Part shown: positions 13,166-58,560 of the stretch, piece after piece
Position numbering within the stretch: the first letter of the stretch is position 1
How the letters are laid out: each line of letters starts with the position of its first letter
NCBI GenBank assembly: GCA_016784125.1
Contig: JADHVI010000003.1
Location: 7,241 to 71,240, forward strand
DNA length: 64,000 nucleotides
Origin: Candidatus Woesearchaeota archaeon
GTDB lineage: Archaea; Nanobdellota; Nanobdellia; Woesearchaeales; GCA-2686295
Direction: 5' to 3'
Program-made: the position numbers and the translations under genes
Notes under the pieces: generated by a model
Told to the model about the DNA's origin: nothing
Seen by the model: only the letters and a program-made list of their open reading frames with translations
Database searches by the model: none

Positions 13166-13649
13166 CTTATTTGTTTTTTTTAGTAAACATAATTGTTCCA
13201 TTTTATTTTTCTCCGTTCATCCTTGGATTGCTAAGTCTACATCCTATCTGTTCCTTAGCTAACAAGCCCCCAAGAATGTCTTGTGTTGCAAATAGTATTA
13301 CCGTTTTTCGTCTTTATAAACTTTTCGGTAAAAAAAACTTTATTTGTATGGACGAGTACCTCTCTACAGTCGAGAAAATATACTAAAAACCACACTAATG
13401 TATATAAGTGTATATTAACTACTAATTAGGTACAATGTGATAATTGTTAAAAAATACGTAAAATAAGCAATATTCTGTAATGTGCATCTCAAGATGCAAA
13501 TAAACAGAGATAAACTATTTCTTAATGGCACTGAGATTATACAATGCAAGAAAACAATGGTTTTCAAATTACTCAAAATATTTTTCTAAGAAAATTGCTT
13601 TTAAAAAATATAATGAGAGCCGCACATAAACTTATAGTCTTAATATATA

Positions 13650-16540
<2,891 letters not shown>

Positions 16541-16723
16541 TTTTATATAATGCAAAGACTGGTTTGTTTATGTGCGGCTTCATTAACATGATATATCACA
16601 ACACACTGTATGTTGTGGAAAGTTCAAAAGCCGGTGCTTTTGAACAAATCTAAGTAAGCATGTCTATGCCATAAGATTAACAGATGTTATCTAATTAATC
16701 TAGTGTGTAAAGTAAATATGAAG

Positions 16724-16797
16724 TGGACTCGTCGGGATTCGAACCCGAAGCCTTCTGGTTGCAAACCAGACGCTCTACCAGGTTGAGCTACGAGCCC
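16724..16797 (-). tRNA. tRNA-Ala (anticodon UGC) in the 16S-23S spacer
   Basis: Reverse complement GGGCUCGUAGCUCAACCUGGUAGAGCGUCUGGUUUGCAACCAGAAGGCUUCGGGUUCGAAUCCCGACGAGUCCA folds as a cloverleaf with anticodon loop UUUGCAA. Confidence 0.85.
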
Positions 16798-16869
16798 GTA
16801 TAAGTCCTATAGTAATGAGTATAAAAGGTAGGAATAAAAGAAACTATAAAATTATTAAATTAATAAAAA

Positions 16870-18334
<1,465 letters not shown>

Positions 18335-28004: not shown

Positions 28005-28101
28005 TTGTATTAATCCTTCTTTTAGCAAGATAACATTTCAAAAATCTATTTGATTTTTGTTTGTGTTCTCTTGCACCTTTGATAATTGTATCTTTAGTCA
28101 T
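27997..28101 (-). CDS. 34-codon upstream ORF whose first 13 codons duplicate the uvrA N-terminus (MTKDTIIKGAREHKQKSNRFLKCYLAKRRINTND); its stop overlaps the uvrA start
   Basis: ~45-nt near-identical copy of the uvrA 5' end (40/45 identities); uORF stop TAA overlaps the uvrA start as AATGACTAA. Confidence 0.3.
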   Translation of the reverse strand: MTKDTIIKGAREHKQKSNRFLKCYLAKRRINTND

Positions 28102-35286: not shown

Positions 35287-35940
35287 CTATTGATAAGAAG
35301 GTTGTTCTGATGTTCTATCTATCATTAATTTTGTTTTTGCATCAGGGGTGACTATCATTGTAAAATCTCGATTCCTAATTTCTTGAGCCAGTTCTTGAAC
35401 ATTGGACACCCTGTTAAAAAATCCTGTGGAATAACCCCCTACAGTTCTTTCATCGCGAGCATCTGATCCTGCAATCAACTTAATGCCTTGTTTCGTAGCC
35501 AGTGTAACTGTATCTAAATTGTTAATAGCGGAAGCTTTTAGATTGACTTCTAAAGCGTGGATGCTTGGAATCCTTTTTTCACTATTTCTCGCATATACTC
35601 CTGGCCGAGTAAATGGGTGTGCTGCTACAATAGCCCAGTTTAATCTTTCAGCTAATGCTCCAATTTCTGCAAATGGTAAGTTCGGTCTTGGTATATATTT
35701 ATCCGATTCTATTCCATATATCAAAATGTGTCCTAGATCGGACGTGTACTCAACACCTCTCATTATTAATAAATCAGAGTTTTTGTACTGTTCCCATCTA
35801 GCACTGGCGTCATAAGAATTATGTTCTACGATTACAATTCCGTCAAGCCCATTTGCCAAAGCAGCTTCAATTATTTTATTTGGATCTGCTTGTCCATGGC
35901 TGTTGTGCAATGAATGCACGTGTGGATCGATATTTTGCAT
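35287..35940 (-). CDS. PHP-domain phosphoesterase
   Basis: N-terminal DPHVHS...VIVEHNS His cluster typical of PHP. Confidence 0.55.
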   Translation of the reverse strand: MQNIDPHVHSLHNSHGQADPNKIIEAALANGLDGIVIVEHNSYDASARWEQYKNSDLLIMRGVEYTSDLGHILIYGIESDKYIPRPNLPFAEIGALAERLNWAIVAAHPFTRPGVYARNSEKRIPSIHALEVNLKASAINNLDTVTLATKQGIKLIAGSDARDERTVGGYSTGFFNRVSNVQELAQEIRNRDFTMIVTPDAKTKLMIDRTSEQPSYQ

Positions 35941-35989
35941 TTTGAACTGGGAGATTAACTTTTTATATAAATCTTATCTCTGTATTTAT

Positions 35990-37246
35990 ATGGAGAAGAT
36001 TTTTATCAAGACTTATGGGTGTACGCATAACCAATCTGATTCAGAGTTTATGGCTGGTTTGCTAGAGCAGGAAGGCTTCAAACTAGTTGATGATGAAGCA
36101 AGCTCAGACCTCATAATTATTAATACTTGTACTGTGAAGGATCCTTCTGAGAAAAAATTTTTCTTTGAATTAGAGAACATTAAAAAACCCGTAGTTGTAG
36201 CAGGTTGTATTCCACAGTCTGACCAGAACAATCCAAAACTCCAAAACTATTCTTTAGTTGGTGTAAAACAGATAGAACGAATTGCTGAAGTTGTAAAACA
36301 AACATTACAAGGCAATAAAGTACGGTTTCTAAATCAATCAAACGATCAAAGTTTAAACTTGCCAAGAATAAGAAAAAATTCTCTCATTGAGATTATCCCA
36401 ATCTCTTCAGGTTGCTTAGGCCAGTGTACATTTTGCAAAACTAAATTTGCTCGTGGTTCATTAGTTTCATTCAAGGAAGAAGCAATCATTAAACAGGCAA
36501 GAGCTGCTTTAAATGAGGGTGTCAAAGAGATATGGTTGACGTCTGAAGACACAGGTGCTTATGGCTTAGATATCAAAACTACTTTGCCCCATCTACTAAA
36601 AGAATTGCTCAAAATAAACAAGGATTACAAAGTGAGACTTGGTATGATAAACCCTGAGTATGTAATAGAATACGTCGATGAACTGGTCGAAATATACCAA
36701 TACAAAAAAATGTTCAAATTTATACACATCCCTGTTCAGTCAGGTAATGACCGCATCCTAAAACTTATGAAGCGTCCTTACACAATCAAAGATTTCAGAA
36801 AAGTAGTACATCATATGACAAAACTCATACCCACTCTTACAATTTCGACAGATATAATTTGTGGTTTTCCAACAGAAACTGAAGAGGAATTTCAAGATAC
36901 TATGAATTTAGTCAAAGAAATGAAATTCCCTGTGTTGAACATATCTAAGTTCTATCCTCGACCTAGAACTCTGGCTGCGAAGATGATTCCTTTGGATACA
37001 ATGATTAAGAAAGCTCGTTCTAAAAAACTAACTAATTTGAACAAAACTCATATCTCGAACGCAGAATGGATTGGTTGGGAGGGAGAAATAATTGTGGATG
37101 ATGTGGGTAATGAAGACTCTTTTTTAGGGAGAACTAATTCTTACCGTCAAATAGTTGTACGAGGGAAAAACCTCTTTGGGAAACATCTTAAAGTTAGAGT
37201 TGTGGATATATGTAGGGATTACTTTGTAGGATCTAAAATTGAATAA
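35990..37246 (+). CDS. MiaB-like radical-SAM methylthiotransferase (archaeal MtaB/CDKAL1-type)
   Basis: UPF0004 N-domain (IKTYGCTHNQSDSE), radical SAM CLGQCTFC, C-terminal TRAM; start at the first ATG (MEKIFIKTYGC). Confidence 0.8.
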   Translation: MEKIFIKTYGCTHNQSDSEFMAGLLEQEGFKLVDDEASSDLIIINTCTVKDPSEKKFFFELENIKKPVVVAGCIPQSDQNNPKLQNYSLVGVKQIERIAEVVKQTLQGNKVRFLNQSNDQSLNLPRIRKNSLIEIIPISSGCLGQCTFCKTKFARGSLVSFKEEAIIKQARAALNEGVKEIWLTSEDTGAYGLDIKTTLPHLLKELLKINKDYKVRLGMINPEYVIEYVDELVEIYQYKKMFKFIHIPVQSGNDRILKLMKRPYTIKDFRKVVHHMTKLIPTLTISTDIICGFPTETEEEFQDTMNLVKEMKFPVLNISKFYPRPRTLAAKMIPLDTMIKKARSKKLTNLNKTHISNAEWIGWEGEIIVDDVGNEDSFLGRTNSYRQIVVRGKNLFGKHLKVRVVDICRDYFVGSKIE

Positions 37247-38164: not shown

Positions 38165-39517
38165 ATGAGTATATTTAAAACCTATGATATAAGGGGTATA
38201 TATCCTGATCAATTGGATGAAGAATTAATATATAAAATAGGAAAATCATTTGTTCAAATTCTAAAAGAAGAAACCTTAAAAGAAAAACTAACAATAGTTA
38301 TAGGAAGAGATATGAGGTTATCTTCACCTTCTTTATCAAAAAAGCTTATAGAAGGAATAATTGATACCGGATCTGATGTAATAGATATAGGATTAGTATC
38401 AACACCAACATTCTATTATTCAATTGGAAAATTCAAAGCTGATGGTGGATTACAAGTTTCAGCTTCACATAATCCTAAAGAATACAATGGTGTCAAAGCA
38501 GTAAGAGCTAACGCTTATCCAATGGGTTTAAGCAATGGTTTAGATAAGGTTAGAGATTTATGTACAAAAAATGAGTTCGAAAAAGTAGAACAGAAGGGAC
38601 AAGTAATTAATAAAGAAAATGTTGTTAATTCTATTGTTGATTATTCTTTAAAATATTATAATTTTAATATTAAACCATTAAAAGTTGTTGCGGATGTTGC
38701 AAATGCAATGAGCTCACCTGATCTAGATAATCTGTTTGAACAACTACCTTGCGAATTAATTAAAATGAATTTTGAATTAGATGGAACTTTTCCAGTTCAC
38801 CAAGCAGACCCTTTTCAAGAAAAAAATATTGTGGATATAAAAAGAAAAGTTATTGAAGAAGGGGCAGATTTAGGTATAGCAACTGATGGAGATGGTGATA
38901 GAATATTCTTTATTGATGACAAAGGAGAACTAGTTGAGCCAGGAATTATTAGAGGAATTATTGCTAAAGTTGTTTTGCAACACAATCCTGGATCAAAAAT
39001 TTGTTATGATATTAGGCCTGGAAGAATTACAAAAGATATGATTATTGAGAATGGTGGTATTCCTATTGTTACAAAAGTTGGTCATTCATTGATTAAAATA
39101 CAAGCAATAAAAGAAAAAGCCCCTTTCTCAGGTGAATCATCAGGGCACTTTTTTATGAAAACAAATAATGGATTTTTTGAATGCCCTTTGATTATTGCTT
39201 TGATAATAATGGACGAAATATCTAAAAATGGTAAACTGTCTGAAATCATAAAACCTTTACAGAGATATTCTCATTCAGGTGAAATTAATTCTATAGTTGA
39301 AGATAAAGAAGAAAAAATGAAAGAGCTTGAAAAAGTGTTTGGAGATGGGTCTAAAGTTTCATGGTTGGATGGAATATCAATAGAACATGATGATTACTGG
39401 TTCAATGTCAGAGCTTCAAATACTGAACCTCTTCTAAGATTAAATTTGGAAGCAACTTCCAAAGAGAAAATGGAAGAGATGACTAAGAAAGTTGTTGAAA
39501 TAATAAGAAAAATCTAA
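38165..39517 (+). CDS. phosphoglucomutase/phosphomannomutase
   Basis: Active-site Ser loop SASHNPKEYNG, metal-binding DGDGDR, sugar-binding GESSGH. Confidence 0.85.
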   Translation: MSIFKTYDIRGIYPDQLDEELIYKIGKSFVQILKEETLKEKLTIVIGRDMRLSSPSLSKKLIEGIIDTGSDVIDIGLVSTPTFYYSIGKFKADGGLQVSASHNPKEYNGVKAVRANAYPMGLSNGLDKVRDLCTKNEFEKVEQKGQVINKENVVNSIVDYSLKYYNFNIKPLKVVADVANAMSSPDLDNLFEQLPCELIKMNFELDGTFPVHQADPFQEKNIVDIKRKVIEEGADLGIATDGDGDRIFFIDDKGELVEPGIIRGIIAKVVLQHNPGSKICYDIRPGRITKDMIIENGGIPIVTKVGHSLIKIQAIKEKAPFSGESSGHFFMKTNNGFFECPLIIALIIMDEISKNGKLSEIIKPLQRYSHSGEINSIVEDKEEKMKELEKVFGDGSKVSWLDGISIEHDDYWFNVRASNTEPLLRLNLEATSKEKMEEMTKKVVEIIRKI

Positions 39518-39520
39518 TAA

Positions 39521-40984
39521 CTAGCTATTCCACTTATGCTTATTTCTAAACAAATGCTTTTTCTTCAAGAATTTTTCAACTTCAGGAATATCTTCAACAG
39601 TGCCCATGTCTAACCAGTAATCTTGAATCTTGCTGATCTTAACCATTTTCTTACCACCAAGCTTTGTAATGGCATCGATTAATTCGTACTCGCCCCGTTC
39701 AGACTTATTGATTACTTTCAAAACCTTAAATATTTCAGGAGTGAATTTATACAACGAAGTATTAACTAAGTTTCCAATTAACTTCTTAGGTTTCTCTTTA
39801 ATTCTGACAAGATAATCCTTGTCTTGGAACATAACTCCATATTTGCCAGGGTGTTTGTCAACTCTTCCAACAACATGGCAATAACCATCATTCTTTCGCA
39901 AAACCTCTAAATCGCCAGGAGAATACAAATTATCACCTGCAACAACAACGAAGTTCTCCCGTTCAATATAGTCATGTAACAAGCTAACAGCATGGCCAGT
40001 GCCCAGTAATCTTTTTTGTTCAATGAGCTTAACATCCTTAAAACCATACTTTTTCAAGAACTCTTTAATCTTGGCCTGCTTATAACCAACAATTAAAAAG
40101 ATTTCTTTGTAACCTGCTTTCTGAATATTGGTTAATAGATACCAAAGAAAAGGTTTATCATTAACCTTAACGAGAACCTTAGGAATATTCTTAGTCAAAG
40201 GCATCATATTAGTTCCTTTACCAGCTGCTAAAACGAAAATCTTGTTAATCTTTCCCTTTTCAGGAACAAGTATTTCACATAACTGAGAAACTCTCTTAAA
40301 TTCAAAATCAGGAGTCTCATCATCATTTATTGGTTGAAGATGAGCATATTCTCCATGTTGAATTAAGGATGTGAAGCAACCAATATTATTGGCTGGAGCG
40401 ATATCACTGTCACGCCTATTGCCAACCATCATAGTCTCATCAGCTTGCAAGTGATGATCCTTCAAAATCTGTTTCAAAAGATTCTTTTTATCAGCACCAT
40501 AATCAACACTCTTATAATAAATCCTGTCAAAATATTTCTCCAAACCTAAAGCTTTGATTTTCATCTCCTGAGATTTTCGAATACCAACAGTTAACATGAA
40601 CAATTTGTAACGCTTCCTAAGTTTATCAAGAGAAAATTCGACATCAGGAAAAGGTGTGATTTCAGGTTTTTTTAGCATAAAATAATTATAGTAAGAATAA
40701 TAGCCTGCGTGGATAATGCTTTTACGCTTTTGCTCATTCTTAATGTCAAAAAAATCAACAATTTTGATGTACAACTCTTTCTCAGTATGCTTCTGTTTAA
40801 ACAATTCATTACTCTTACTCAAAAGCTTATTGAAAGGAACATCTAAACCGGCCTCAATCATCTGCTTCATAGCAAAACGTCTAGCAGGTTTGACAAGTTG
40901 TTCATAACAATCATATAAAGTATCATCTAAATCAAAAATCACTGCTTTCAAATCAGACAATAACAAGATCTTCTTACGCTTCAT
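39521..40984 (-). CDS. bifunctional HAD-phosphatase / sugar-1-phosphate nucleotidyltransferase fusion
   Basis: N-terminal HAD motif I VIFDLDDTLYD; C-terminal NTase G-loop VLAAGKGTNMMPLTKNIPKVLVKV; 11-nt overlap with the GHMP kinase gene. Confidence 0.6.
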   Translation of the reverse strand: MKRKKILLLSDLKAVIFDLDDTLYDCYEQLVKPARRFAMKQMIEAGLDVPFNKLLSKSNELFKQKHTEKELYIKIVDFFDIKNEQKRKSIIHAGYYSYYNYFMLKKPEITPFPDVEFSLDKLRKRYKLFMLTVGIRKSQEMKIKALGLEKYFDRIYYKSVDYGADKKNLLKQILKDHHLQADETMMVGNRRDSDIAPANNIGCFTSLIQHGEYAHLQPINDDETPDFEFKRVSQLCEILVPEKGKINKIFVLAAGKGTNMMPLTKNIPKVLVKVNDKPFLWYLLTNIQKAGYKEIFLIVGYKQAKIKEFLKKYGFKDVKLIEQKRLLGTGHAVSLLHDYIERENFVVVAGDNLYSPGDLEVLRKNDGYCHVVGRVDKHPGKYGVMFQDKDYLVRIKEKPKKLIGNLVNTSLYKFTPEIFKVLKVINKSERGEYELIDAITKLGGKKMVKISKIQDYWLDMGTVEDIPEVEKFLKKKHLFRNKHKWNS

Positions 40985-41969
40985 TAATAACTAACCCCTT
41001 TTTCACTATCTGAAAATCAATCACATCTGATTCTTTAGATAAAGCATTACTAACATCTTCCTTCTTATTTTTTTCAACAAAGAAAACAACGCAGCCACCG
41101 CCACCTGCACCACAAACTTTAGCAGAAATAGCACCATTCTTCTTAGCTAACGCAATTAAAGATTCAATCTTATCAGTGGAAACAGAGTCAGCCAACAGCT
41201 TTCGATTTTCCCACTCCTCACCCAATATTAAACCAATATCATCAAACCGTTTATCAAACAAAACGTCTTTCATTTTATGAGCAGTAGCAACAATACGTGC
41301 GAATTTTTCATGAACTCCATCTTTGCCTTCAATTTCGTTTTTAATCATTTCCCAATTGCTCATGCCAGAGTTTCTAGGCTTGCCAGTATAACAAAGAACT
41401 AACCTATCTTCAAGCTCCTTAATATCAACATCAATTGTCTCATGAGAAATCTTATTCATTCCAAGATAAACAATGTTTACACCGCCATATAATGCGGGTA
41501 CATAATCTTGGTAACCAGTCAACATTTTCAAAAACTTTCCTTCAATGTTCTTAGCAATCTCGTGCAACTCATCCATGGAAAAACCTTTTTTTGTAAGTCT
41601 ATTCAAAGCACCACAAACAGCTATATTCAAAGCAGACGAACTAGACAAACCCGCACCCGGAGGAGCACTTCCTTTGACCTCTAATCTGAAACCCTGTTTA
41701 GGCTGGAAGAACTCAATAATCATCGAGAACAAAGATAAATAATGATTATGATGTAAATTATTGAATGAATCAAAAGAAACCTCTTCATCACTAATGTTGG
41801 ACGCGAGAATAATTTTGTTATCCTCTCTTGTAGAAAGCTTAGCCTTAGCCAAAAGATTAATTGCAAAGTTAACTGTGAGTGCATCTTTATGAAATAGATA
41901 CAAAGGCCAAATATCAACCGTTCCGCCAGCTAAATCAACTCTGGTAGGTGCTGAGCTTTCAATAATCAT
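40974..41969 (-). CDS. GHMP-family sugar kinase (HddA/fucokinase-like)
   Basis: N-terminus SAPTRVDLAGGTVDIWP and ATP-binding PPGAGLSSSSA. Confidence 0.7.
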   Translation of the reverse strand: MIIESSAPTRVDLAGGTVDIWPLYLFHKDALTVNFAINLLAKAKLSTREDNKIILASNISDEEVSFDSFNNLHHNHYLSLFSMIIEFFQPKQGFRLEVKGSAPPGAGLSSSSALNIAVCGALNRLTKKGFSMDELHEIAKNIEGKFLKMLTGYQDYVPALYGGVNIVYLGMNKISHETIDVDIKELEDRLVLCYTGKPRNSGMSNWEMIKNEIEGKDGVHEKFARIVATAHKMKDVLFDKRFDDIGLILGEEWENRKLLADSVSTDKIESLIALAKKNGAISAKVCGAGGGGCVVFFVEKNKKEDVSNALSKESDVIDFQIVKKGLVINEA

Positions 41970-48119: not shown

Positions 48120-48881
48120 ATGCCTAATTTTGATTCTATCAAAAACATAGTTGTAGATGAATACTCAACTGAACCTGCGCAAGAAAGATATAGAAAAAAC
48201 ACTCGTGCTGGATTATGGAAATCTGAAACAATTTTGTTTGAGAAATATTTGAAACCAGGATCTTCAGTTCTAGACATTGGTTGTGGTTCAGGAAGAACAA
48301 GTTTTGCGCTTGCAAAAATGGGTTATAAAGTAACTGCCATTGATTTAACACCTGCAATGATTGCATCTGCTAAGCAACTTGGCAAAGAATTTGATATGGA
48401 TTTAGATTTCAGATTAGGTGACGCAACAAACTTAGACTTTGAAAAAGAGAGCTTTGACAACGCAGTATTCTCATTTAATGGATGGGATAATATTCCTGGA
48501 AGGGAAAATAGGTTAAAATCGTTGCAAGAAGTCTACAGAGTTCTAAAACCAGGCGGAGTATATGTCTTAACATCTCATGTTAGAAAGATGGGAAAATATA
48601 CTCCTTTTTGGATAGCGCAGTGGATGAAAATGTATATCTTGAAACCATTTGGATACAAAGTAATGGAAAAAGAATGGGGCGACAGATTCTTCAAACAAGA
48701 ACAATCGGGTTTGAAAATGAAGAATAAACAGTTTGCATGCATACCAAGCTTAAAAGAAATAAAATATCAAATAGCAAAAGCTGGTTTTACACTAGAGTTT
48801 TATGATTATAGAAATAATATTTCAAAAGAGGAACTAACAGCAGGAAACTGTACGTTCTTTATTTGCAAGAAAAATGGGTGA
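48120..48881 (+). CDS. class I SAM-dependent methyltransferase
   Basis: VLDIGCGSGRTSFALAKMGYKVTAIDLTPAMIASAKQ. Confidence 0.7.
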   Translation: MPNFDSIKNIVVDEYSTEPAQERYRKNTRAGLWKSETILFEKYLKPGSSVLDIGCGSGRTSFALAKMGYKVTAIDLTPAMIASAKQLGKEFDMDLDFRLGDATNLDFEKESFDNAVFSFNGWDNIPGRENRLKSLQEVYRVLKPGGVYVLTSHVRKMGKYTPFWIAQWMKMYILKPFGYKVMEKEWGDRFFKQEQSGLKMKNKQFACIPSLKEIKYQIAKAGFTLEFYDYRNNISKEELTAGNCTFFICKKNG

Positions 48882-49845
48882 CTGGGAATCAATATTCAAA
48901 GAGAGGAAAGATATTTTTAGAGAGCCTCAGGAAGATATGAATAAAATCATTGCTCTTTTGAAAAAAGAAAAAGCTAAAAGAGTTCTTGATCTAGGATGCG
49001 GTACAGGAAGACATACAGTTCTATTATCAAAAAACGGATTTGAAGTTTATGCGGCTGATATTTCAGAATCTGGAATAAAGAACGCAAAAAAGTGGTTGAA
49101 AGAAGAAGGTTTGAATGCCAAGTTCAAGATTCAAGATTTTTATAAAAAATTTAACTTTAAAGATGGTTTTTTTGATGCTGTGATATCAACGCAGTCTATT
49201 CATCACAATTATCAAGATAAAGTTCAGTTCTGCATTTCCGAAATCGAAAGAGTTCTCAAACCAGGCGGAATTGCTTTTGTAACTGTTTCAGCCAGCAAAT
49301 ACAAACGCAGAGCTTCTAAATATAAAATTGTAGGTCCCAGAGTTTATGTTCCAATGGATGGGGCTGAAAAAGGACTGCCTCATTTTATTTATACTAAGTC
49401 TTTGTTGAGAAAAGATTTTAAGAATTTTAAAATTATAAGTTTGCATATGGACAAAGGAAAACATTACTGTGTTTTAGGAAGGAAAGGCAATACAACTAAA
49501 TTCCAAGAAAATATCTATGCGAAGCTGAGGAAAGTGCCGAAAGGCAAAGTAACGACTTATGGAGAACTAGCCAAAGCAGTAAAGAGTAAAGCTTATCGCG
49601 CAGTTGGTAGTGCAATGAACAAGAACCCATATGTGTCTGAAAAGCATAGCTTTTCTGAACATGCCAAAAATAAAGAATTTTTGAGCACGCCTCAAGTACC
49701 ATGCCACAGAGTTGTTTGTAGCGATGGAAGTATTGGTGGTTTTGCATCTGGAGTCAAAAAGAAGATTGCAATCTTAGAAAAGGAAGGAGTTCTAGTAAAG
49801 AAGAATAAAATAGTTGATTTTGAAAAGAAACTCTACAAGTTCTAA
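48874..49845 (+). CDS. fusion protein: SAM-dependent methyltransferase + O6-alkylguanine-DNA alkyltransferase (MGMT/Ogt) C-terminal domain
   Basis: N-terminus VLDLGCGTGRHTVLLSKNGFEVYAADIS; C-terminus YAKLRKVPKGKVTTYGELA...NKNPY...VPCHRVV (PCHR active-site Cys) with a ~17-aa insertion before PCHR. Confidence 0.6.
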   Translation: MGDWESIFKERKDIFREPQEDMNKIIALLKKEKAKRVLDLGCGTGRHTVLLSKNGFEVYAADISESGIKNAKKWLKEEGLNAKFKIQDFYKKFNFKDGFFDAVISTQSIHHNYQDKVQFCISEIERVLKPGGIAFVTVSASKYKRRASKYKIVGPRVYVPMDGAEKGLPHFIYTKSLLRKDFKNFKIISLHMDKGKHYCVLGRKGNTTKFQENIYAKLRKVPKGKVTTYGELAKAVKSKAYRAVGSAMNKNPYVSEKHSFSEHAKNKEFLSTPQVPCHRVVCSDGSIGGFASGVKKKIAILEKEGVLVKKNKIVDFEKKLYKF

Positions 49846-50922: not shown

Positions 50923-52665
50923 ATGGGGGTTTGTAGTAAAAAGGAATTGAAGATATTCATCACTTTTTTCTTAATATATGTTATATTCGCGCAGAGTATT
51001 GCTTGGAATGAAAATACTAGGCTAGATCTGACTTTAGCTATTGTAGATGAAGGAACATTTGCAATAGATTCCTACTTTGAAAACACAGGTGACAGAGTTA
51101 CTTTCAATGATCATTATTACACAGATAAAGCTCCAGGAATGTCTTTTTTAGGAATACCATCATATTTTGTCTATAAACAATTTTTTGGACCGCCAACTGT
51201 TGGAGAAGAACTATATGCTCCTTTATCAAAGAGTTTTGCTTCAGCTTTATTTATAGTAATAATATTTACTTCTGCTCTCTTAGGAGCATTGAGTGTAGTT
51301 TTAGTATACAGAGTATCAAATTTTTTCACGAAAAGAAAACTCCACAAAAACTTAATTGTGCTAATATATGGCCTTGGAACACTCATTTTTGTTTACTCAA
51401 GAATCTTCATGTCACATACAGCTGCAGCGTTTTTCTCATTTTTATGTTTCTATTTAATATTAAAAGCAAACCAAGAGAAGAGCAAGAAAAAATATTATTT
51501 TTTATTGGCAGGACTCAGTGGAGGTTTTGGTCTGATAACCGATTACACCGTTCTAATTGTTCTAATCATTTCTTTTTTAATGATATTTCTTGGAACCTCA
51601 AAATACAAGCTTGTTTTCACTTCTAAACTAAAACATTCTGGATTGTTCATTTTAGGATTCATATTAATTTTCTCACTCTTAATCTTTTATAATCAACAAG
51701 TCTTCAACAAGAGCATTGCTTACCCATATTCATATGTAGATTCGTCTGTGTGGACTGATTCGAGCTATGAACTATATGGTGTTACGTGTGAAGGGCTCTC
51801 ACCAGATGACACTTATCGTTGTAAAGCTATAGGAACACAAGATGTAAAACTGTGTGAAGAAATATCAGATTTTAATACTAGAGACAGTTGTTTTTTATCT
51901 CTTGCATTTTCACTAAAAGAGATTGATGTTTGCAACAATATTCTAAATAAAGATAACTCGTATTTTTGCAAATCTAGAGTGAACTACGACAAATCATTCT
52001 GTAACGAAATAGTGGATCAATCTATTAAGAAAGAATGCGTGGGAGAACTGTCAATAATAAAAAAAGTGTCTAATATTTTCTTCCTAAACAAAGAAGATGT
52101 ACCTCTAAAAATGTTTAGATTGTCATTCTTTCCTTATAGAGGATTATTTTTCTATTTTCCAATTTTAATATTTTCAATCATAGGTTTGTTCTTTATGTTC
52201 AAAAAGTACAAGTTTGAATCTTTGGCAATAGCAGGGCTGTTTTTAGTTTTATTGTGGTTTAGTGCATCACTAACTGTTTGGTGGGGTGGTTATGCTTTTG
52301 GTCCACGTCACATGACTCCTCTGATGCCTTTCTTAATGATTCCATTATTATTTTCTCTTAAAAAAATTAAGCTTCGTTACATAATGCCTTTTATAGTAAT
52401 ATCAATATTCTTCTGCGTTTTAAGTTTACAAATTCCAGAAGAAGCAGGTTTAGGTAAAACTGTTGATAATCTTACACCGTTTGGAAATCCTTTATTTGAT
52501 CATTATCTTCCTTCATTCTTGGAATCGGGACCAAGAACTATTTTATTAGAGAAATTATCTGATGTGTTTATGTCTAACATGGGATTTAAAATAGCTATAA
52601 TTTTATCATTATTGGTTTGGCATAAAGAATTGTATCGCTTAATTAGAAAAAAATCTTTTAAGTAG
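50923..52665 (+). CDS. GT-C-fold membrane glycosyltransferase (PMT/ArnT-like) with an inserted Cys-rich extracytoplasmic loop
   Basis: ~12 TM segments; first-loop acidic motif AIVDEG...YYTDKAPGMSFLGIP typical of the GT39/GT83 families; ~120-aa loop with 12 Cys (CEGLSPDDTYRCKA...CEEISDFNTRDSCF...CNNIL...YFCKS...FCNEIV...ECVG). Confidence 0.5.
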   Translation: MGVCSKKELKIFITFFLIYVIFAQSIAWNENTRLDLTLAIVDEGTFAIDSYFENTGDRVTFNDHYYTDKAPGMSFLGIPSYFVYKQFFGPPTVGEELYAPLSKSFASALFIVIIFTSALLGALSVVLVYRVSNFFTKRKLHKNLIVLIYGLGTLIFVYSRIFMSHTAAAFFSFLCFYLILKANQEKSKKKYYFLLAGLSGGFGLITDYTVLIVLIISFLMIFLGTSKYKLVFTSKLKHSGLFILGFILIFSLLIFYNQQVFNKSIAYPYSYVDSSVWTDSSYELYGVTCEGLSPDDTYRCKAIGTQDVKLCEEISDFNTRDSCFLSLAFSLKEIDVCNNILNKDNSYFCKSRVNYDKSFCNEIVDQSIKKECVGELSIIKKVSNIFFLNKEDVPLKMFRLSFFPYRGLFFYFPILIFSIIGLFFMFKKYKFESLAIAGLFLVLLWFSASLTVWWGGYAFGPRHMTPLMPFLMIPLLFSLKKIKLRYIMPFIVISIFFCVLSLQIPEEAGLGKTVDNLTPFGNPLFDHYLPSFLESGPRTILLEKLSDVFMSNMGFKIAIILSLLVWHKELYRLIRKKSFK

Positions 52666-53646
52666 CAAACATTTTCTATTTGATAGTAAGATTTCATTCA
52701 AAGCTTGTCTAAGTCCAAACTTATGTCTTCTTATCTTGAGAATGTTTTTTTCAACAAGAACTTTTTTGACAAGCAAATCAAGTTTATTGCTATCTGCATA
52801 CAATTGATTCATAACTTTATTTGGTATCTGTAGATCCAGAAGGGGTCTAATTTTTTTAAAAGCAAAATAAGTACTGCTTGAAACACCCCAATTTTTAGAT
52901 GTTTTTATCAAAAAATCCCAATTAATTTGGTTTTTCTTTAGTAAAAGTGAGATGTCAACTAAGTATTTCAAAGGACTTCGAAATAGGTCGTGGTGTGCTA
53001 AGAAAGTTGATATAAGAATAACTTCATGCTCTGGACATAAATAGTTTTTTTTTGAATGTTGAAATAACTCTTCAATAGAAATGTTGTAAGGATCTGTTTT
53101 TTCAAATACTTGCCAATGAAGATCAATGTGGCAGTCAACCATCCCAACTTTTTTGACAAAAGGTAGCTGTGTGCTAAACTCTTCTAAATATTTCTTAGAA
53201 TGGATTTGCTCAAATAACCCAAATCCATTTGCTTTAAGAATCTCTACTGCTCGTTTTTTATCTTCTTCTAAAATCAAAATATCAATATCCATAAATTCTC
53301 TAAGTCCAATTTTATAATAACCTTGAGAAACCATTGATGCTCCTTTGAAAACGAGGAATCTAATTTTATTTTTTTGAAATATCTTAGAAACTCTATCAAG
53401 TTCTTTTTTTAACAACAGACTATACATCAAAACGTTTTTGTAATTATTTTTTAGCTCTAACTTTTTATTCTTAGGAATTGAGCTTGAATGTTTCAATTTC
53501 TCATAAACTATTCCGCCAATTAAATTATAACTATGGATACTTTCTAATTTGTCCCAGTCAATACATGGTAACTTGTTCTCTTTAATGTTTTTATTATTGA
53601 TGAATTGCTTTGTGATTTCCAGTATGGTCTGTTCTTCTTTGTTCAT
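52639..53646 (-). CDS. putative nucleotidyltransferase (Pol-beta-like, PF14907-like)
   Basis: GAS...DIDILIL pattern (FKGASMVSQGYYKIGLREFMDIDILIL); start set to the first ATG (ORF-track start is a TTG). Confidence 0.45.
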   Translation of the reverse strand: MNKEEQTILEITKQFINNKNIKENKLPCIDWDKLESIHSYNLIGGIVYEKLKHSSSIPKNKKLELKNNYKNVLMYSLLLKKELDRVSKIFQKNKIRFLVFKGASMVSQGYYKIGLREFMDIDILILEEDKKRAVEILKANGFGLFEQIHSKKYLEEFSTQLPFVKKVGMVDCHIDLHWQVFEKTDPYNISIEELFQHSKKNYLCPEHEVILISTFLAHHDLFRSPLKYLVDISLLLKKNQINWDFLIKTSKNWGVSSSTYFAFKKIRPLLDLQIPNKVMNQLYADSNKLDLLVKKVLVEKNILKIRRHKFGLRQALNEILLSNRKCLLLKRFFSN

Positions 53647-53708
53647 TGATCTTTTCAATATGAATAACTATTTAAGTTAATCGAAATTTGTTACAATTGA
53701 TCTGCATC

Positions 53709-54653
53709 ATGAATTATTTTGATAATTTAAGAACTTTGTATAACAATCCAATTGAGATTAAAGGCTTTAAACAACTCAACAAGAAAGGCTTGTTTCCTGA
53801 AGAAGAAATATTGATAAAGAAGCATCTTAAGCCAGGAAAAAAAGTTTTAGTTATTGGCTGTGGTGCCGGAAGAGAATGTTTTGTTCTCGCAGAAATGGGA
53901 TTTGAAGTTGTAGGTGTTGACATATCTAAAGAAATGGTTGCAGCTGCAAAAAAACTTTCTGAGAAGAAAAAACTAAATATCAAATTCTTCGAATCAAATA
54001 TATTGGACTTTGATTACAAGAAAGAATCATTTGATTACGTTTTAATGCTTGAACAAATGTATAATCTTATTCCTTTCAAAAAAAACAGGTTGCTGTTATT
54101 AAAGAAAGTTCGCTTCTTACTTAAGAAGAACGGCTTATTCATTTTCTCAGCATATTCAAAGTTATATTTTCATTTAATTTTTCCTTATTTGTTTGTGAAA
54201 TTTCCGCAAAATTTAATTAGAAATTTATTCTCCAGTAAAGACAAACTTATGCACCTTCAACAGTCTAAATATTCATTTTCAAATCCGAAACCTTTGTCGA
54301 GAATAAAACTCTTAAAACGTTTTTTTGGAAAAGTTTATTATGCCTTAAAATTATTTCTAAGAGAACCTATTTTTTTATTTAAGAATATATACAGATTAAT
54401 TCAAAAAATTATCTTTAAAAAAAGAGCTGTATTGGAACCTGGTGATTTAATTGGAAATCCGAGTCTTTTTTGTAAAAACGAATCTTTGAAAGTAGTTTTT
54501 AAGTATTTCAGTCCAAAACAAATTACAGAGAAAATAGTCGAATCTGATTTTAAATTAGTTAGATATTATTCTAGAGATGAACTCCTAGAAAACAAAAGGT
54601 TTATGGGGAAAATATTTACTGATATAAATTATTATGTTGCAGAGAAATTTTAA
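53709..54653 (+). CDS. class I SAM-dependent methyltransferase
   Basis: VLVIGCGAGRECFVLAEMGFEVVGVDISKEMVAAAKK; first ATG used. Confidence 0.65.
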   Translation: MNYFDNLRTLYNNPIEIKGFKQLNKKGLFPEEEILIKKHLKPGKKVLVIGCGAGRECFVLAEMGFEVVGVDISKEMVAAAKKLSEKKKLNIKFFESNILDFDYKKESFDYVLMLEQMYNLIPFKKNRLLLLKKVRFLLKKNGLFIFSAYSKLYFHLIFPYLFVKFPQNLIRNLFSSKDKLMHLQQSKYSFSNPKPLSRIKLLKRFFGKVYYALKLFLREPIFLFKNIYRLIQKIIFKKRAVLEPGDLIGNPSLFCKNESLKVVFKYFSPKQITEKIVESDFKLVRYYSRDELLENKRFMGKIFTDINYYVAEKF

Positions 54654-54739
54654 CAAGTTTTACAACAGTTGAGCTCGCCAACATTCTTAATAAGTTTAAG
54701 AGTCGGTTTTTCGTATTCAAGAGTTTTCTTCTTCATCAT
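54650..54739 (-). CDS. candidate RiPP precursor peptide (29 aa: MMKKKTLEYEKPTLKLIKNVGELNCCKTC)
   Basis: Unannotated small ORF in the gap between the MTase and the B12-rSAM genes, on the same strand as the PqqD, kinase and NTase genes; Lys-rich leader-like N-terminus and Cys-rich C-terminus; weak RBS (AAGAAA); could be a chance ORF. Confidence 0.35.
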   Translation of the reverse strand: MMKKKTLEYEKPTLKLIKNVGELNCCKTC

Positions 54740-54811
54740 ATTTTTTCTTAATTTTTTTTATTTAAAAACTTTTTGGATATATTTATATATTTCTTCTCGC
54801 AATCCAATCTT

Positions 54812-56242
54812 ATGACTGATGTTCTTCTTTTTATTCCAAGATATAAGTGGAATGATTCTAAAAAAGCAGACTCTTGTTATCCTCCTATTGGAGTTGCTAT
54901 ACTTGCTTCTAATCTTGAAAAAAATAGTTATTCTGTTTCTATTCGTGACGCAAACGTAGAACCAATATCTGAGAAGGAGTTTATTGGTTTAATTAAGAAA
55001 GAAAAGCCTTCCTTATTTGGTTTGTCTATTTCAGATGCGAATATTCCGGATGTGAAAAGATGGTGTTTACTAGTTAAAAAAATAAGTGCACACACAAAAA
55101 TAGTGATTGGCTGTCGCGATAAATTATTTCTAAAAAATAATTTTTTGTCTTTTGCAGATTATTTTGTAATTGGTGAAGCAGAAGAAACAATTGTTGAATT
55201 GTCAGATTGTATTATTAAGCGTACCTGCTCTTTAAAATCAATTAATGGATTGGCTTATTTTGAAAAGAATGTACTAGTGATGAATAGTCTTAGAAAAAAA
55301 GTCTCTAATCTAAATAAGCTGCCATTTCCAGCATACCATCTTCTTTCGATGAATCTTTACAAGCCATATGCAATTAATCATCTTGGTAAAAGGTTTACTG
55401 CTATTATTAGCAGTCGTGGATGTGCTTTCAAATGTTCTTTTTGCAGTATCGCAGTTGCTAATAGCCATACTTGGAGACCCTTAAGCGCGGCAAATACTAT
55501 TGCGTTAGTAGAATATTTGCATGCAAAACATGGTATTACTCACATACATTTTCAGGATGATGAATTTCTTATAGATTCTAAGAGAGCTGCTAAGATTTGT
55601 ACTCTAATGAGATCGAAATTTGATAAAGAAATTGTTTGGGAGTGCAGGGGCAGGGCTGCAAATATGTCTGAAACATTAGCTTCTCTTCTTGCATCTGCGA
55701 ATTGTATAGCAATTACTTTTGGAATCGAACTTGGATATCAAGAAGGCTTAGATAAAATAAAAAAACAAACCACTATAAAACAAATTGAAAAGGCTGTTGA
55801 AGTTTCCAGAGAGAATCATTTACAAACAAAAGCGGGTTTTATGTTAGGATTTCCTTGGGAAACAAAGGAAGATGTCCAGAAAACAATTGATTTTGCAAAA
55901 AAGTTGCCCCTTGATTTTGCAGGTTTTACGATTTTAATTCCTTTTGAAGGAACTGAAATGTATGCTTTGCTAAAAAAAGAACGTTTAATTGTTTCATCTG
56001 GAGATACTTTCTCAAAGAAGAATGGTTTCGAGTTTTCTGTAAACACCAAATTTTTATCTTATAGAGAACTGGTAAAATTAAAACTGAGAGCACAAAAACA
56101 GTTCTATTTGCGACCAACTTATTTTCTAAGCTTATTTTTTAGATCTCATAATTTACTAATGTTGAAAAGGTGTTTGAAAACTTATTTTTACTCAATAAAA
56201 GCTATTATCTGGACCTCTTCTAAACTTTTCAGAACTCAATAA
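54812..56242 (+). CDS. B12-binding-domain radical SAM protein (class B)
   Basis: N-terminal cobalamin-binding-like domain, SSRGCAFKCSFCSI (CxxxCxxC); TATA-like ATTTATATATTTC ~20 nt upstream of the first ATG. Confidence 0.7.
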   Translation: MTDVLLFIPRYKWNDSKKADSCYPPIGVAILASNLEKNSYSVSIRDANVEPISEKEFIGLIKKEKPSLFGLSISDANIPDVKRWCLLVKKISAHTKIVIGCRDKLFLKNNFLSFADYFVIGEAEETIVELSDCIIKRTCSLKSINGLAYFEKNVLVMNSLRKKVSNLNKLPFPAYHLLSMNLYKPYAINHLGKRFTAIISSRGCAFKCSFCSIAVANSHTWRPLSAANTIALVEYLHAKHGITHIHFQDDEFLIDSKRAAKICTLMRSKFDKEIVWECRGRAANMSETLASLLASANCIAITFGIELGYQEGLDKIKKQTTIKQIEKAVEVSRENHLQTKAGFMLGFPWETKEDVQKTIDFAKKLPLDFAGFTILIPFEGTEMYALLKKERLIVSSGDTFSKKNGFEFSVNTKFLSYRELVKLKLRAQKQFYLRPTYFLSLFFRSHNLLMLKRCLKTYFYSIKAIIWTSSKLFRTQ

Positions 56243-56498
56243 GTTTATTTTTTTCTAGTTTGTTTAACATTTCAATTACATCTTTCTCTAAAGCCTTTTT
56301 CCCAACTGAGAATTTCTTACTCATGGAAACAATGATTTCTTCAATATTTCTCTTTCCGTTTATAAGATTCCATACAATGCTCCCACTACTATTAAGGTTA
56401 TAGAACTTTCCTGTTTCAAGCAAGAGTATGATAGTTTCATCATCAATTTTCTCAGATTCAATATCTTTTCGCTTTTTAGGAATACTTTTCAAGTTCAT
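56229..56498 (-). CDS. PqqD-family protein (RiPP recognition element-like)
   Basis: ETGKFYNLNSSGSIVWNLINGKRNIEEIIVSMSKKFSV...ALEKDVIEMLNKLEKNKLI fits the PqqD/RRE pattern (x-Y-x-LN-x-G-x-iW-x-l-G-x-R-x-eeI ... D-v-efl-x-L-x-LI); 89 aa. Confidence 0.65.
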   Translation of the reverse strand: MNLKSIPKKRKDIESEKIDDETIILLLETGKFYNLNSSGSIVWNLINGKRNIEEIIVSMSKKFSVGKKALEKDVIEMLNKLEKNKLIEF

Positions 56499-58098
56499 CT
56501 ATTTCCCTCCAAAAATGCTTGTCTTTTTTAAAGTATAAATAATTGCACTTTACTTCTTTTGAAATATTTTTTATCAGTTCAAATACTTTTTCATACTCAT
56601 CCTTTTTCCTGGTTATGAATTTGAAAAACATTTCTTCCTTGGTTAGTTCCATAATTACATTTGCTCTACTAATTTCGCTTAGAGTGTGAGAATCTGATTG
56701 TTTAATGAAAAATATTCTGTGAAGTTTCACAGTTTTACTATTTGGTTTTAATGTCTCTTTGAATTTAAAATATTCTCCTCCCAGAGGATTGCCATACAAG
56801 AAAAACTGTTTATTCTTTTTCTGGATAATTGTTGTTTCATCATTTAGAACTGCTGATTTATCTGACAAACTAGCAATAGTGGATTTTCCAGCTCCCTTCT
56901 CACCGCAGAAGACATATCCTTTGTTATTTCTAACAATTGAGCTGGCATGTAGGAATATTGTCTGTTTGTCATATAATATGCTGGCAAAAGTCATTTTCAA
57001 GGCTTTTCCGCAAGCATATTTACTATTAGGCATTTTAATCCATGCATACGCCTGTTCTTTGTTTTTCTCAATCTGTAATAATAATGTTTTGTCTTCATAT
57101 ATTGTTTCTAAAGATGAATCTACTTTGTTTTGTATACTTAGAAACAACTTAATTGACTCAGGTTTTTTAGTTTCAAAGTGCTTGTAATCATTTTCAATTC
57201 TTTTCAAAAACAATTTGCTCTCAGACATTACTTTTACTGTTAGATCAGCAATATTTATCTTTAAGTCATAAGTGGGTTTAATACCTATTAGTTCTAGTGA
57301 TTCTTTTTTGTTCTTGAATGAAATAATCGTGTTTGACAAATCAAACAAATCTTTCATCATTTTATCAATAGCCTTGGTTGTTGAACTATACTCTTTGTAA
57401 ATTTGAAGTATTTTCTTCAAGCAGTTTTCTGATTCTCTAGTTATAGTATTATTCTTACTGGCAATATACTTTGCCTTTAGAAAATAGTTTCTTGCTAAAT
57501 AGAATTTATTCTCTTCTCTCGCAGGATTTTGTTTCATGTCTTTGATTATGAGCGGATAATTCCTTTTTCTTTTCTTTTCTGTTTGTTCTAAATTGTTATA
57601 ACCAAAATGCCTAATACAGACTTTTTTAAGCATACGGCTTTTAGGAATATTTTTTTGCGATTCAACTATTTTTTCATGAACAATTCCACTCCAAAAATAT
57701 TTTTTTGAATTCCTAAAGAGAACTATTCTTTTGTGAACTGAAGATTTTTGATTTTCTTTTTCAGAGATAATTTTTACTTTGAAACAATCGTTTTTTTCAT
57801 TTAATTGGCTCTTTAATTCTGTACTGTGTTCTAAAATCTCATCTGCATCAATTGAAATAATCCATTCTTTGGTACACTTACTTAATGCATAGTTTCTTGC
57901 TTCTGAAAAATCGTTTTTGAATTTATGCGAGAAAACTTTGTTAGTATATTTTTTCCCAATCGCAATGGTACTATCTTTTGACCCTGTATCAACAATTACA
58001 ATCTCATCAACAACATTTTTTATGCTTTCTAAACATCTGGAAAGATTCTTTTCTTCATCTTTTACAATTAGACACGCAGAAATTGTTTTTTTTGTCAT
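56476..58098 (-). CDS. family-2 glycosyltransferase fused to an HprK-related P-loop kinase domain
   Basis: N-terminal GT2 (CLIVKDEEKNLSRCLESI...IVIVDTGSKDST...ISIDADE); C-terminal FLHASSIVRNNKGYVFCGEKGAGKSTIASL matches the HprK-type kinase P-loop (LHAS...G-x-x-G-x-GKST); overlaps the PqqD gene by 23 nt. Confidence 0.6.
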   Translation of the reverse strand: MTKKTISACLIVKDEEKNLSRCLESIKNVVDEIVIVDTGSKDSTIAIGKKYTNKVFSHKFKNDFSEARNYALSKCTKEWIISIDADEILEHSTELKSQLNEKNDCFKVKIISEKENQKSSVHKRIVLFRNSKKYFWSGIVHEKIVESQKNIPKSRMLKKVCIRHFGYNNLEQTEKKRKRNYPLIIKDMKQNPAREENKFYLARNYFLKAKYIASKNNTITRESENCLKKILQIYKEYSSTTKAIDKMMKDLFDLSNTIISFKNKKESLELIGIKPTYDLKINIADLTVKVMSESKLFLKRIENDYKHFETKKPESIKLFLSIQNKVDSSLETIYEDKTLLLQIEKNKEQAYAWIKMPNSKYACGKALKMTFASILYDKQTIFLHASSIVRNNKGYVFCGEKGAGKSTIASLSDKSAVLNDETTIIQKKNKQFFLYGNPLGGEYFKFKETLKPNSKTVKLHRIFFIKQSDSHTLSEISRANVIMELTKEEMFFKFITRKKDEYEKVFELIKNISKEVKCNYLYFKKDKHFWREIDELEKYS

Positions 58099-58143: not shown

Positions 58144-58560
58144 ATGAGACAATTAACTATAAACAGCAACAGTATGCTTCCATTACTGAAAATCAACGAT
58201 CGAGTAGTTGTGAATAACACTAATTCATTTGTAATTGGGGATATACTAGTTTATAAGAAAAACAAATCTTTTGTAGGCCATAGACTAGTTAAAAAAAGTG
58301 AATTAGGTTTTTTTGTTAAAGGAGATAATGATCCTACTGTTGAACTTGTTAGTTCCAATAAAATCCTTGGGAAAATAATTCTAATTAATAATTATAAATT
58401 TAAGAATAATTTCATTGAAAAAATAATTTCTCATTGTTCTTATGTTCAGTCAAAAATCCCTTTCATATTTAACATTAAGAATGATTTGTTAAGAAAAGCC
58501 TTTAAATTTCTAACTAATCCTTTATTATACTTAGCTCACTCTTCAAAGCATTGTTTATAA
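58144..58560 (+). CDS. S24/S26-family (signal-peptidase/LexA-like) peptidase
   Basis: SMLPLLKINDRVVV (Ser nucleophile box), GDILVYKK, VKGDN motifs as in S26 signal peptidases; 138 aa. Confidence 0.45.
   Translation: MRQLTINSNSMLPLLKINDRVVVNNTNSFVIGDILVYKKNKSFVGHRLVKKSELGFFVKGDNDPTVELVSSNKILGKIILINNYKFKNNFIEKIISHCSYVQSKIPFIFNIKNDLLRKAFKFLTNPLLYLAHSSKHCL

Follow-up and report, generated by a model that had tools for sequence, protein, structure and literature searches.

The 64,000-nucleotide stretch of Candidatus Woesearchaeota archaeon DNA analysed here (the window; contig JADHVI010000003.1, positions 7,241 to 71,240) carries a gene whose product joins a family 2 glycosyltransferase (GT2) domain, a helical domain, and a domain resembling HprK and ScmC in one polypeptide (Table 1). 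Around this fusion gene are genes for a PqqD-family recognition element (RRE) for peptides that are made on the ribosome and modified after translation (RiPPs), a signal-peptidase homolog, a PF14907 nucleotidyltransferase, a methyltransferase, and a B12-binding radical S-adenosylmethionine (SAM) enzyme, together with a short open reading frame (ORF) for a candidate precursor peptide. These features are considered here as components of a putative archaeal RiPP pathway, in which the fusion protein would be a tailoring enzyme with two activities.

A glycosyltransferase and a kinase-like domain in one polypeptide

The initial annotation, made from the letters of the window, had read the gene as a single 540-residue polypeptide with GT2 and HprK-like domains, and this is borne out by the ORF, by a deposited protein, and by an ortholog. 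The ORF begins with ATG, and at the G+C content of its DNA (28.8%) the chance of 540 stop-free codons is ~3e-23. An identical protein has been deposited (MBL7057009.1, MBC8494621.1) under the label 'glycosyltransferase [archaeon]' and is present on 17 contigs from several sources; the ortholog (P0002) is 61% identical, likewise 540 residues long, and has the same architecture. The precomputed Pfam annotation of the fusion consists of PF00535 and PF27840 (ScmC); Hpr_kinase_C itself is unmatched. An AlphaFold2 model of the full-length protein has a predicted local distance difference test score (pLDDT) of 90.3 and a predicted template modelling score (pTM) of 0.61; in it a GT-A core (residues 1-165) is followed by five helices (residues 170-270).

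The reading of the N-terminal half as a GT-A/GT2 domain with a DxD motif has held: Pfam Glycos_transf_2 (PF00535) matches residues 7-101 (E 5e-18), and the DxD is D84-A-D86 within IDADE. In a search of PDB sequences with this half, the best matches were the catalytic domain of GmaR (22ao; E 4e-33, residues 5-190) and SunS/ThuS (E 1e-16 to 7e-14, residues 4-246; SunS 7msp at E 1e-16). SunS and ThuS are also the top PDB structural neighbours of the model (E 6e-17), and since these alignments span ~285 columns they extend past the GT-A core. The DxD-bearing GT-A core with an adjoining helical domain, a SunS-type feature, is common to the fusion, to the S-glycosyltransferases SunS and ThuS (PDB 7msp, 7msn, 7msk), and to the flagellin O-GlcNAc transferase GmaR, enzymes whose acceptors are peptides or proteins. 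Unlike SunS, ThuS, and GmaR, the fusion has no tetratricopeptide repeat (TPR) array and carries the HprK-like C-terminus instead. Nearly all listed relatives of the N-terminal half are GT2-TPR proteins of roughly 600-850 residues, and in the fusion the C-terminal kinase-like domain stands in place of their TPR array. PqqD probably mediates recruitment here; glycocin enzymes make no use of it.

The C-terminal half had been described as an HprK-type P-loop domain, for which the string FLHASSIVRNNKGYVFCGEKGAGKSTIASL was quoted; this string maps to residues 382-411 (nt 56866-56955). The domain belongs to the HprK/PEPCK (phosphoenolpyruvate carboxykinase) superfamily but is not HprK proper. Among NCBIfam models, the last 286 residues (255-540) match ScmC (E 3.4e-10), HprK_rel_A (5e-7), and HprK_rel_B (2e-5) best; the next matches are generic ABC ATPases at E 0.05, so that the domain does not align better to unrelated P-loop NTPases. 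A phmmer search of the domain against PDB sequences gave insignificant generic P-loop matches only, and a structure-based search was then used. All 50 PDB neighbours listed for an AlphaFold model of the domain, built on an alignment of 99 homologs (pLDDT 88), are ATP- or GTP-dependent PEPCK (E down to 3e-9) or HprK/P (8e-6 to 2.5e-3), with no RecA, ABC, or AAA fold among them. Structure prediction, which the initial annotation had proposed as a check, therefore gives PEPCK and HprK/P as neighbours of the C-terminal fold and SunS and ThuS as those of the N-terminal one.

The motif order of HprK/P and ATP-dependent PEPCK, LH(A/G)S...GxxGxGK(S/T)...D(D/E), recurs in the fusion as a His in LHxS, a Walker A motif GxxGxGK(S/T), and an acidic pair. 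Across the 99 homologs H384, the Walker A Gly, Lys, and Thr (GK.T), and D420 are invariant or nearly so. The family profile aligns the LHAS...GxxGxGKST motif to PEPCK, and this segment, as it stands in the close homolog P0126, can be aligned with positions 132-184 of TIGR00679, the model for true HPr kinase. Because fold, best family models, and motif order agree, the domain is placed in the HprK/PEPCK superfamily; because it scores under the curated cut-offs of every HprK-related model (TIGR04249, TIGR04352, TIGR04355) and Hpr_kinase_C is unmatched, it is assigned to a divergent subfamily rather than to HprK proper. The fusion also lacks the HprK N-terminal domain, and its genomic context differs from that of HprK. 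An exhaustive profile search with the domain brought up 6658 representatives (E <= 1e-3), for the most part free-standing proteins of 250-280 residues; such a search was needed to recover the family, a word-indexed search with the domain alone having returned one relative (P0121).

ScmC, the best-scoring model, belongs to the SynChlorMet cassette, and its family (TIGR04249/PF27840) was defined by comparative genomics only. Like the fusion, ScmC is paired with a PqqD homolog and radical-SAM enzymes, but the radical-SAM partner of the fusion is of the B12-binding type whereas those of ScmC are the ScmE/ScmF SPASM pair. The same three models, TIGR04249, TIGR04352, and TIGR04355, make up the 'HprK kinase' class in the domain table of Popov et al. 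(PMC13381572). The three best NCBIfam models of the fusion are therefore those that label the proven lasso and linear polyphosphorylated peptide (LPP) RiPP kinases, a link that runs via the shared models; LppK (PMC13381572) and PsmK (PMC6993621) are experimentally proven peptide Ser kinases.

Table 1. Positions of the fusion gene, its domains and motifs, and other features of the window
Feature	Positions	Strand	Basis
Fusion gene, GT2 + helical domain + HprK/ScmC-like domain	56476..58098	-	ORF; 540 aa + stop
GT-A (GT2) catalytic domain, aa 1-168	57595..58098	-	PF00535, PDB and structural neighbours
DxD, D84-A-D86 within IDADE	57838-57849	-	
Helical domain as in SunS/ThuS, aa ~169-272	57283..57594	-	Model helices 170-190, 195-216, 221-236, 242-260, 264-270
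HprK/PEPCK-superfamily P-loop domain (ScmC family), aa 273-540	56479..57282	-	Family matches, PF27840, fold search
LH384AS of the kinase-like domain	56938-56952	-	Motif reading
Walker A GEKGAGKST, aa 399-407	56878-56904	-	Motif reading
Acidic pair D420-E421	within 56830-56847	-	Motif reading
PqqD-family RRE, 89 aa	56229..56498	-	Pfam PqqD E 1.4e-15
Small ER/archaeal-type (S26B-like) signal-peptidase homolog, 138 aa, candidate leader peptidase	58144..58560	+	Pfam Peptidase_S24 23.4 bits vs cut-off 23.3
Candidate precursor, 28/29 aa, uncalled by gene callers	54650..54739	-	M(M)KKKTLEYEKPTLKLIKNVGELNCCKTC
B12-binding radical SAM enzyme	54773..56242	+	Pfam Radical_SAM + B12-binding
SAM-dependent methyltransferase	53688..54653	+	Pfam Methyltransf_31 E 2e-21; 63% identical ortholog in L001
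PF14907 nucleotidyltransferase (PsmN/LppN-type)	52639..53658	-	Pfam NTP_transf_5 E 4e-37
GT-C-like polytopic membrane protein, Cys-rich insert of ~90 residues (about aa 290-380)	50923..52665	+	Pfam PMT_2, PMT
Complete archaeal rRNA operon: 16S (gene at 16872..18333), tRNA-Ala(TGC), 23S	13644-18333	-	Archaeal rRNA models

Gene context, related loci and a candidate precursor peptide

The PqqD gene starts inside the 3' end of the fusion gene, the two having 23 nt in common, and in nine of nine related loci the kinase gene is directly followed by one for PqqD. The PqqD protein of the window has lasso_PqqD_Bac as its best NCBIfam model, at 60.9 bits (cut-off 80), and the lasso RRE TbiB1 as its best PDB match (E 5e-11). 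The peptidase, a Sec11/SipW-like protein of the S24/S26 superfamily, is encoded divergently from the fusion gene. The boxes S10-M-x-P, H46-R47, and K59-G-D61 are invariant in four aligned peptidase domains, and the best PDB matches of the peptidase profile are human SEC11A and SEC11C (E 1e-4), in an alignment that covers the Ser, His, and Asp boxes; read by eye, the window peptidase has no hydrophobic N-terminal membrane anchor. The PF14907 gene, 3 kb from the fusion gene, has a 59% identical ortholog in locus L001, the one orthologous cluster, and is present in eight of the nine related loci.

The B12-binding radical-SAM enzyme has a homolog in locus L003 (26% identity, E 4e-36). In L001 a radical-SAM gene (12941-13927, minus strand; 328 residues) is a weak partial match to the C-terminal half of the window enzyme; no CxxxCxxC motif was seen in it by eye, and the gene may be decayed. 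The GT-C-like membrane protein, which reaches 59 bits with the NCBIfam LA_3751/2 family against a cut-off of 200 and shows only slight similarity (E 3e-5) to a membrane protein encoded in L001, is a possible accessory of the cluster. A set of sugar-activation genes is found at 38165-41969, namely those for a phosphogluco/mannomutase (38165-39517), a HAD hydrolase-nucleotidyl transferase fusion (39521-40984), and a GHMP kinase (40974-41969); these might be a source of a nucleoside diphosphate (NDP)-sugar donor.

The fused GT2-kinase architecture is rare, only P0001/P0002 and the singleton P0126 having been found. P0126 (582 residues) is a second, independent fusion, with an N-terminal GT2 of a different subfamily and 36% identity to the window protein over the conserved part of the kinase domain; its locus, L003, also encodes PqqD, a peptidase-PF14907 fusion, and the B12 radical-SAM homolog. 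A relative of the P0126 GT2, P0275 (564 residues), was considered as a further fusion and rejected, as it has no ScmC-like domain. Free-standing GT2 genes occur beside kinases as well. On a contig from Altiarchaeota the kinase-PqqD pair is directly followed by a separate gene for a GT2 with 39% identity to the window N-terminal domain (E 7.5e-21). In L017, frame-broken SunS/GmaR-like GT2 fragments (4255-4538, plus strand), 60% and 42% identical to the window N-terminal domain, directly follow PqqD and look, from their sequence, like a pseudogene of the same component; another GT2 gene of this locus, from a different subfamily, overlaps the start codon of the kinase gene by 4 nt.

Other components are fused to one another elsewhere. 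The ScmC/HprK-like domain is fused to PqqD in P0223 and P0229 (~355 residues), to a CapD-like Polysacc_synt_2 dehydratase in P0258 (964 residues), and to an M23 peptidase in P0262 (444 residues), while the peptidase domain is fused to the N-terminus of PF14907 in three loci (L002 8787-9989, L003 3970-5475, L015 10871-12136) and to the methyltransferase in L017 (4893-6335). Because fusions link GT2, kinase, PqqD, peptidase, PF14907, and methyltransferase, these are considered one system on Rosetta-stone grounds. A search for related loci with an alignment returned one distant Acidobacteriaceae locus in genome contigs and nothing in metagenome contigs.

The candidate precursor ORF lies between the methyltransferase and radical-SAM genes, on the strand of the fusion gene, and reads MKKKTLEYEKPTLKLIKNVGELNCCKTC (28 residues; also given as MMKKKTLEYEKPTLKLIKNVGELNCCKTC), with a YxxPxL leader motif and a CCxTC tail. 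Its L001 ortholog, MKKEKEKYEKPTMKLIKNIGILNCCGTC, is encoded at 11908-11994, directly after the L001 PqqD gene. Between them, 10 codons carry synonymous changes and 8 carry non-synonymous ones, and from Y8 on the figures are 9 and 4; on this pairwise comparison the ORF is under purifying selection. A TTTTTAAAT box ~25 nt upstream of the precursor ATG, conserved in the window and L001, may be the archaeal TATA-like promoter of a leaderless transcript. The sequence YEKPTL fits the [Y/W]xxPx[L/V/I/F/A] motif that lasso and LPP RREs bind (PMC13381572), and it matches only the YxxPx[L/V] part of the LPP precursor leader, YxxPxVLxHQxIxFETxxS (PMC13381572), the remainder being different.

Seven of nine loci with a homologous kinase contain small ORFs that carry Y.KP.[LIVMF] near the N-terminus, where shuffled sequences give a chance expectation of 0.1-0.33 per locus. 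The peptide of a Planctomycetota locus (L014), MEKQKKLYGKPLLKAIKIMEVGAATCCKSTASTC..., has YxKPxLKxIK and CCK[S/T] in common with the window peptide, and its ORF is directly upstream of genes for a Sec11-like peptidase, kinase, PqqD, and PF14907; a small Acidobacteriaceae ORF includes ...YVKPEFRYEVVFETLALS, which is near the LPP consensus. No NCBIfam model matched any of the four candidate peptides tested. Three metagenome sequences fitted a degenerate DNA pattern encoding the leader (YxKPxxKLIKNxG), but translation showed all of them to be chance matches with no ORF. The three conserved Cys residues of the candidate peptide are compatible with sugar transfer to a Cys thiol, without being evidence for it.

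Known peptide kinase systems and the proposed function of the fusion

The LPP family was described by Popov et al. (Nat Commun, May 2026; PMC13381572) from clusters designated LppA/K/B/S/N/D, the core of which encodes an archaeal-type signal-peptidase-like leader peptidase (LppS), an RRE (LppB), an HprK-like kinase (LppK), an NTP transferase (LppN), and an exporter. These clusters are found inside capsule loci. The residue that LppK polyphosphorylates is Ser3 of the core peptide, and LppS (catalytic S29, H68, D93) cuts off the leader, for which LppB is required. When LppN was deleted, the products detectable in a heterologous host did not change, which led the authors to postulate a partner whose gene lies outside the core cluster; LPPs were stated to be restricted to Bacillota (PMC13381572). 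In the biosynthesis of pseudomycoidin, PsmK phosphorylates and a PsmN-dependent addition of hexose follows, PsmN being described as either a new kind of glycosyltransferase or a supplier of substrate for a host glycosyltransferase (PMC6993621).

The window shares with LPP clusters an HprK-like kinase, a discrete PqqD-type RRE, an ER/archaeal-type signal-peptidase-like peptidase, an NTP transferase of the PF14907 type, the YxxPx[L/V] part of the leader motif, and surroundings of glycan genes. It differs from them in the fusion of the kinase to a SunS/GmaR-like GT2, in the additional B12 radical-SAM enzyme and methyltransferase, in having no MsbA-like exporter, and in its precursor, which has 28 residues, a CCxTC tail, and no Ser, and in which the VLxHQxIxFET part of the leader is not conserved; in addition, the host is an archaeon whereas LPP hosts are Bacillota. 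The cluster is an archaeal relative of LPP clusters.

Comparison had initially been made with lasso clusters, and in part it is apt: the tailoring systems of paeninodin and pseudomycoidin (PadeK/PsmK, PsmN) likewise combine an HprK-like kinase and PF14907 with a B1-type PqqD RRE. Their kinases are free-standing, however, with no recognisable glycosyltransferase in the characterised clusters. The comparison fails at the defining enzymes, since neither a lasso macrolactam cyclase (Asn-synthetase-like) nor a B2 protease (transglutaminase-like) was found in the window, where all ORFs of at least 500 residues were assigned otherwise and the neighbouring ORFs were unmatched; a lasso cluster was rejected on these grounds, and the cluster is better regarded as a relative of the LPP family.

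The evidence as a whole favours, at a probability of about 0.65, the fusion protein being a tailoring enzyme with two activities that acts on the 28-residue peptide, in a RiPP pathway akin to that of the Bacillota LPPs. A peptide substrate is supported because the PqqD gene overlaps the fusion gene and because the conserved 28-residue ORF has a leader motif of the lasso/LPP type. Coupled phosphorylation and glycosylation of the peptide, put forward in the initial annotation, is a reasonable inference from the fusion and its context and the best-supported mechanism. The domain identities, the folds, the conserved catalytic motifs, the conserved gene context, and the conserved peptide ORF are shown by the analysis; which reactions are catalysed, on which residues, and in what order is inferred as follows. 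The PqqD protein would bind YEKPTL in the precursor leader and present the short tail LNCCKTC. The C-terminal HprK-like domain would then use ATP to phosphorylate a hydroxyl, most likely that of the conserved Thr27, and the GT2 domain would use a nucleotide sugar as donor to glycosylate either the side chain of a Cys or Thr or the phosphate, with the domain fusion coupling these two consecutive steps. PF14907, the B12 radical-SAM enzyme, and the methyltransferase would add further modifications, and the soluble Sec11-like peptidase would take off the leader. With the Tyr used to align the peptide to LPP precursors, cleavage as in LPPs would come after Asn23 and leave CCKTC; position 26 would then be the counterpart of phospho-Ser3 of LppA, one residue before the conserved Thr27, for which the Planctomycetota peptide has Ser.

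Several observations weigh against this interpretation. Both halves of the fusion are distant from the families to which they are compared: the NCBIfam SunS model (TIGR04195) aligns to residues 5-248 with 72.9 bits, so far under its cut-off of 350 that the N-terminal half is regarded as SunS/GmaR-like and not as a member of the SunS equivalog, and the C-terminal domain reaches 39.7 bits with ScmC (cut-off 125) and 29 with HprK_rel_A (cut-off 200), while Hpr_kinase_C (PF07475) and TIGR00679 are not matched by the fusion even at E <= 10. The second acidic residue is E421 where the family consensus and PsmK (D158/D159) have Asp. The relative orientation of the two domains is uncertain in the model, as its pTM indicates. 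The candidate core has Thr and no Ser, and LppK rejected Ser-to-Thr and Ser-to-Tyr substitutions (PMC13381572). Nor is there an exporter gene close by: the stretch from 49.8 to 63.8 kb has none of the MsbA-like type, and the sole ABC_tran match among ten other window ORFs scanned was UvrA.

The strictness of LppK for Ser also bears on an alternative in which the GT2 domain alone is catalytic and the HprK-like domain serves as a nucleotide-binding scaffold, or as a docking module for the PqqD-leader complex in place of the TPR repeats that nearly all relatives of the GT2 domain carry at their C-terminus; the peptide would then be glycosylated and not phosphorylated. The PqqD-kinase fusions P0223 and P0229, which show that the domain works in physical contact with the RRE, fit such a role. 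A pure scaffold would be expected to lose H384, the full Walker A motif, and the acidic pair, however, all of which are kept, and the SunS/ThuS-type helical domain is still present beside the GT-A core, so that this alternative is judged unlikely.

Somewhat less probable again is that the substrate of the fusion is a glycan of the cell surface or a sugar linked to lipid (it might, for instance, phosphorylate and glycosylate a polysaccharide or a polyprenyl-linked intermediate), with PqqD and the small ORF having regulatory or incidental roles. A non-peptide acceptor has to be considered because glycan-biosynthesis genes surround all related loci (GT1/GT4, Wzy_C, Bac_transf, Polysacc_synt, EpsG, Wzt ABC, and PMT_2), and this count against a peptide is strengthened by the fusion of the homolog P0258 to a CapD-like dehydratase; LPP clusters, too, are found in capsule loci (PMC13381572). 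Set against this are the kinase-PqqD pair in all nine loci and the lasso-B1-like character of the PqqD protein, the recurrence of leader-motif ORFs well above chance and the purifying selection on the window/L001 pair, the glycosylation of peptides or proteins by the closest structural relatives of the GT2 domain, and the action of LppK and PsmK on peptides. That the 540-residue ORF is an artefact, in which a sequencing or assembly error joined two adjacent genes (as a one-base error could do with the overlapping GT2 and kinase genes of L017), is effectively refuted by the identical protein on 17 contigs from independent samples and assemblies and by the 61% identical ortholog of the same length and architecture, as well as by the ~100 residues of confidently predicted helices between the two domains and the different subfamily of the L017 GT2.

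Bifunctional tailoring of the 28-residue peptide also admits a bolder version, offered tentatively and with appreciably less confidence: the product of the cluster might be an archaeal RiPP of very small size with many modifications, perhaps the pentapeptide CCKTC, on which the fusion would either phosphorylate Thr and then build a phosphodiester-linked sugar or S-glycosylate Cys and phosphorylate that sugar. Were this so, GT2 would be the 'missing partner' of the PF14907 protein postulated by Popov et al. and Zyubko et al., and LPP-like phospho-glyco-peptides would be an ancient cross-domain class tied to cell-surface glycan loci and not a peculiarity of Bacillota.

HprK-like RiPP kinases, their PF14907 partners, and the LPP family are already known. 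No description was found in the literature searched of a kinase fused to a peptide-type GT2, of the system in Archaea or in metagenome-assembled genomes (MAGs) from outside Bacillota, or of the B12 radical-SAM and methyltransferase additions and the minimal Cys-rich precursor; RRE-Finder papers mention fusions of RREs to glycosyltransferases and do not mention the kinase, a literature search for ScmC/SynChlorMet gave unrelated acronyms only, and one for the accessions of the deposited protein gave nothing. The natural GT2-kinase fusion provides Rosetta-stone evidence for the enzyme class of the postulated glycosylation partner, to which the free-standing homologous GT2 genes adjoining kinase-PqqD pairs add. 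With a 28-residue precursor, one PqqD, and one 540-residue enzyme, the locus is small enough to serve as a practical test case for how LPP and lasso phosphopeptides become glycosylated. The RiPP machinery also occurs well outside Bacillota, in the archaeon of the window and in MAGs of Altiarchaeota, Planctomycetota, and Acidobacteriaceae, where the proteins of these loci bear no annotation beyond 'glycosyltransferase' or 'hypothetical protein' and gene calls for the precursors are missing.

Other features of the window

The window has a G+C content of about 0.32, with a peak of 0.46-0.48 at the rRNA operon; it is identified as archaeal because its 16S-tRNA(Ala)-23S operon matches archaeal rRNA models. 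Besides the radical-SAM enzyme of the cluster it encodes a second B12-binding radical-SAM enzyme (30847-32394, minus strand) and a MiaB-like enzyme with UPF0004 and radical-SAM domains (35903-37246, plus strand). A bacterial-type UvrB-UvrC-UvrA operon is present in this archaeal genome at 21710-28028 on the minus strand. A 323-residue ORF at 48874-49845 (plus strand) has both the DNA-binding domain of O6-methylguanine-DNA methyltransferase and a class I SAM methyltransferase domain; only its last 76 residues are included in the public gene call (L004).

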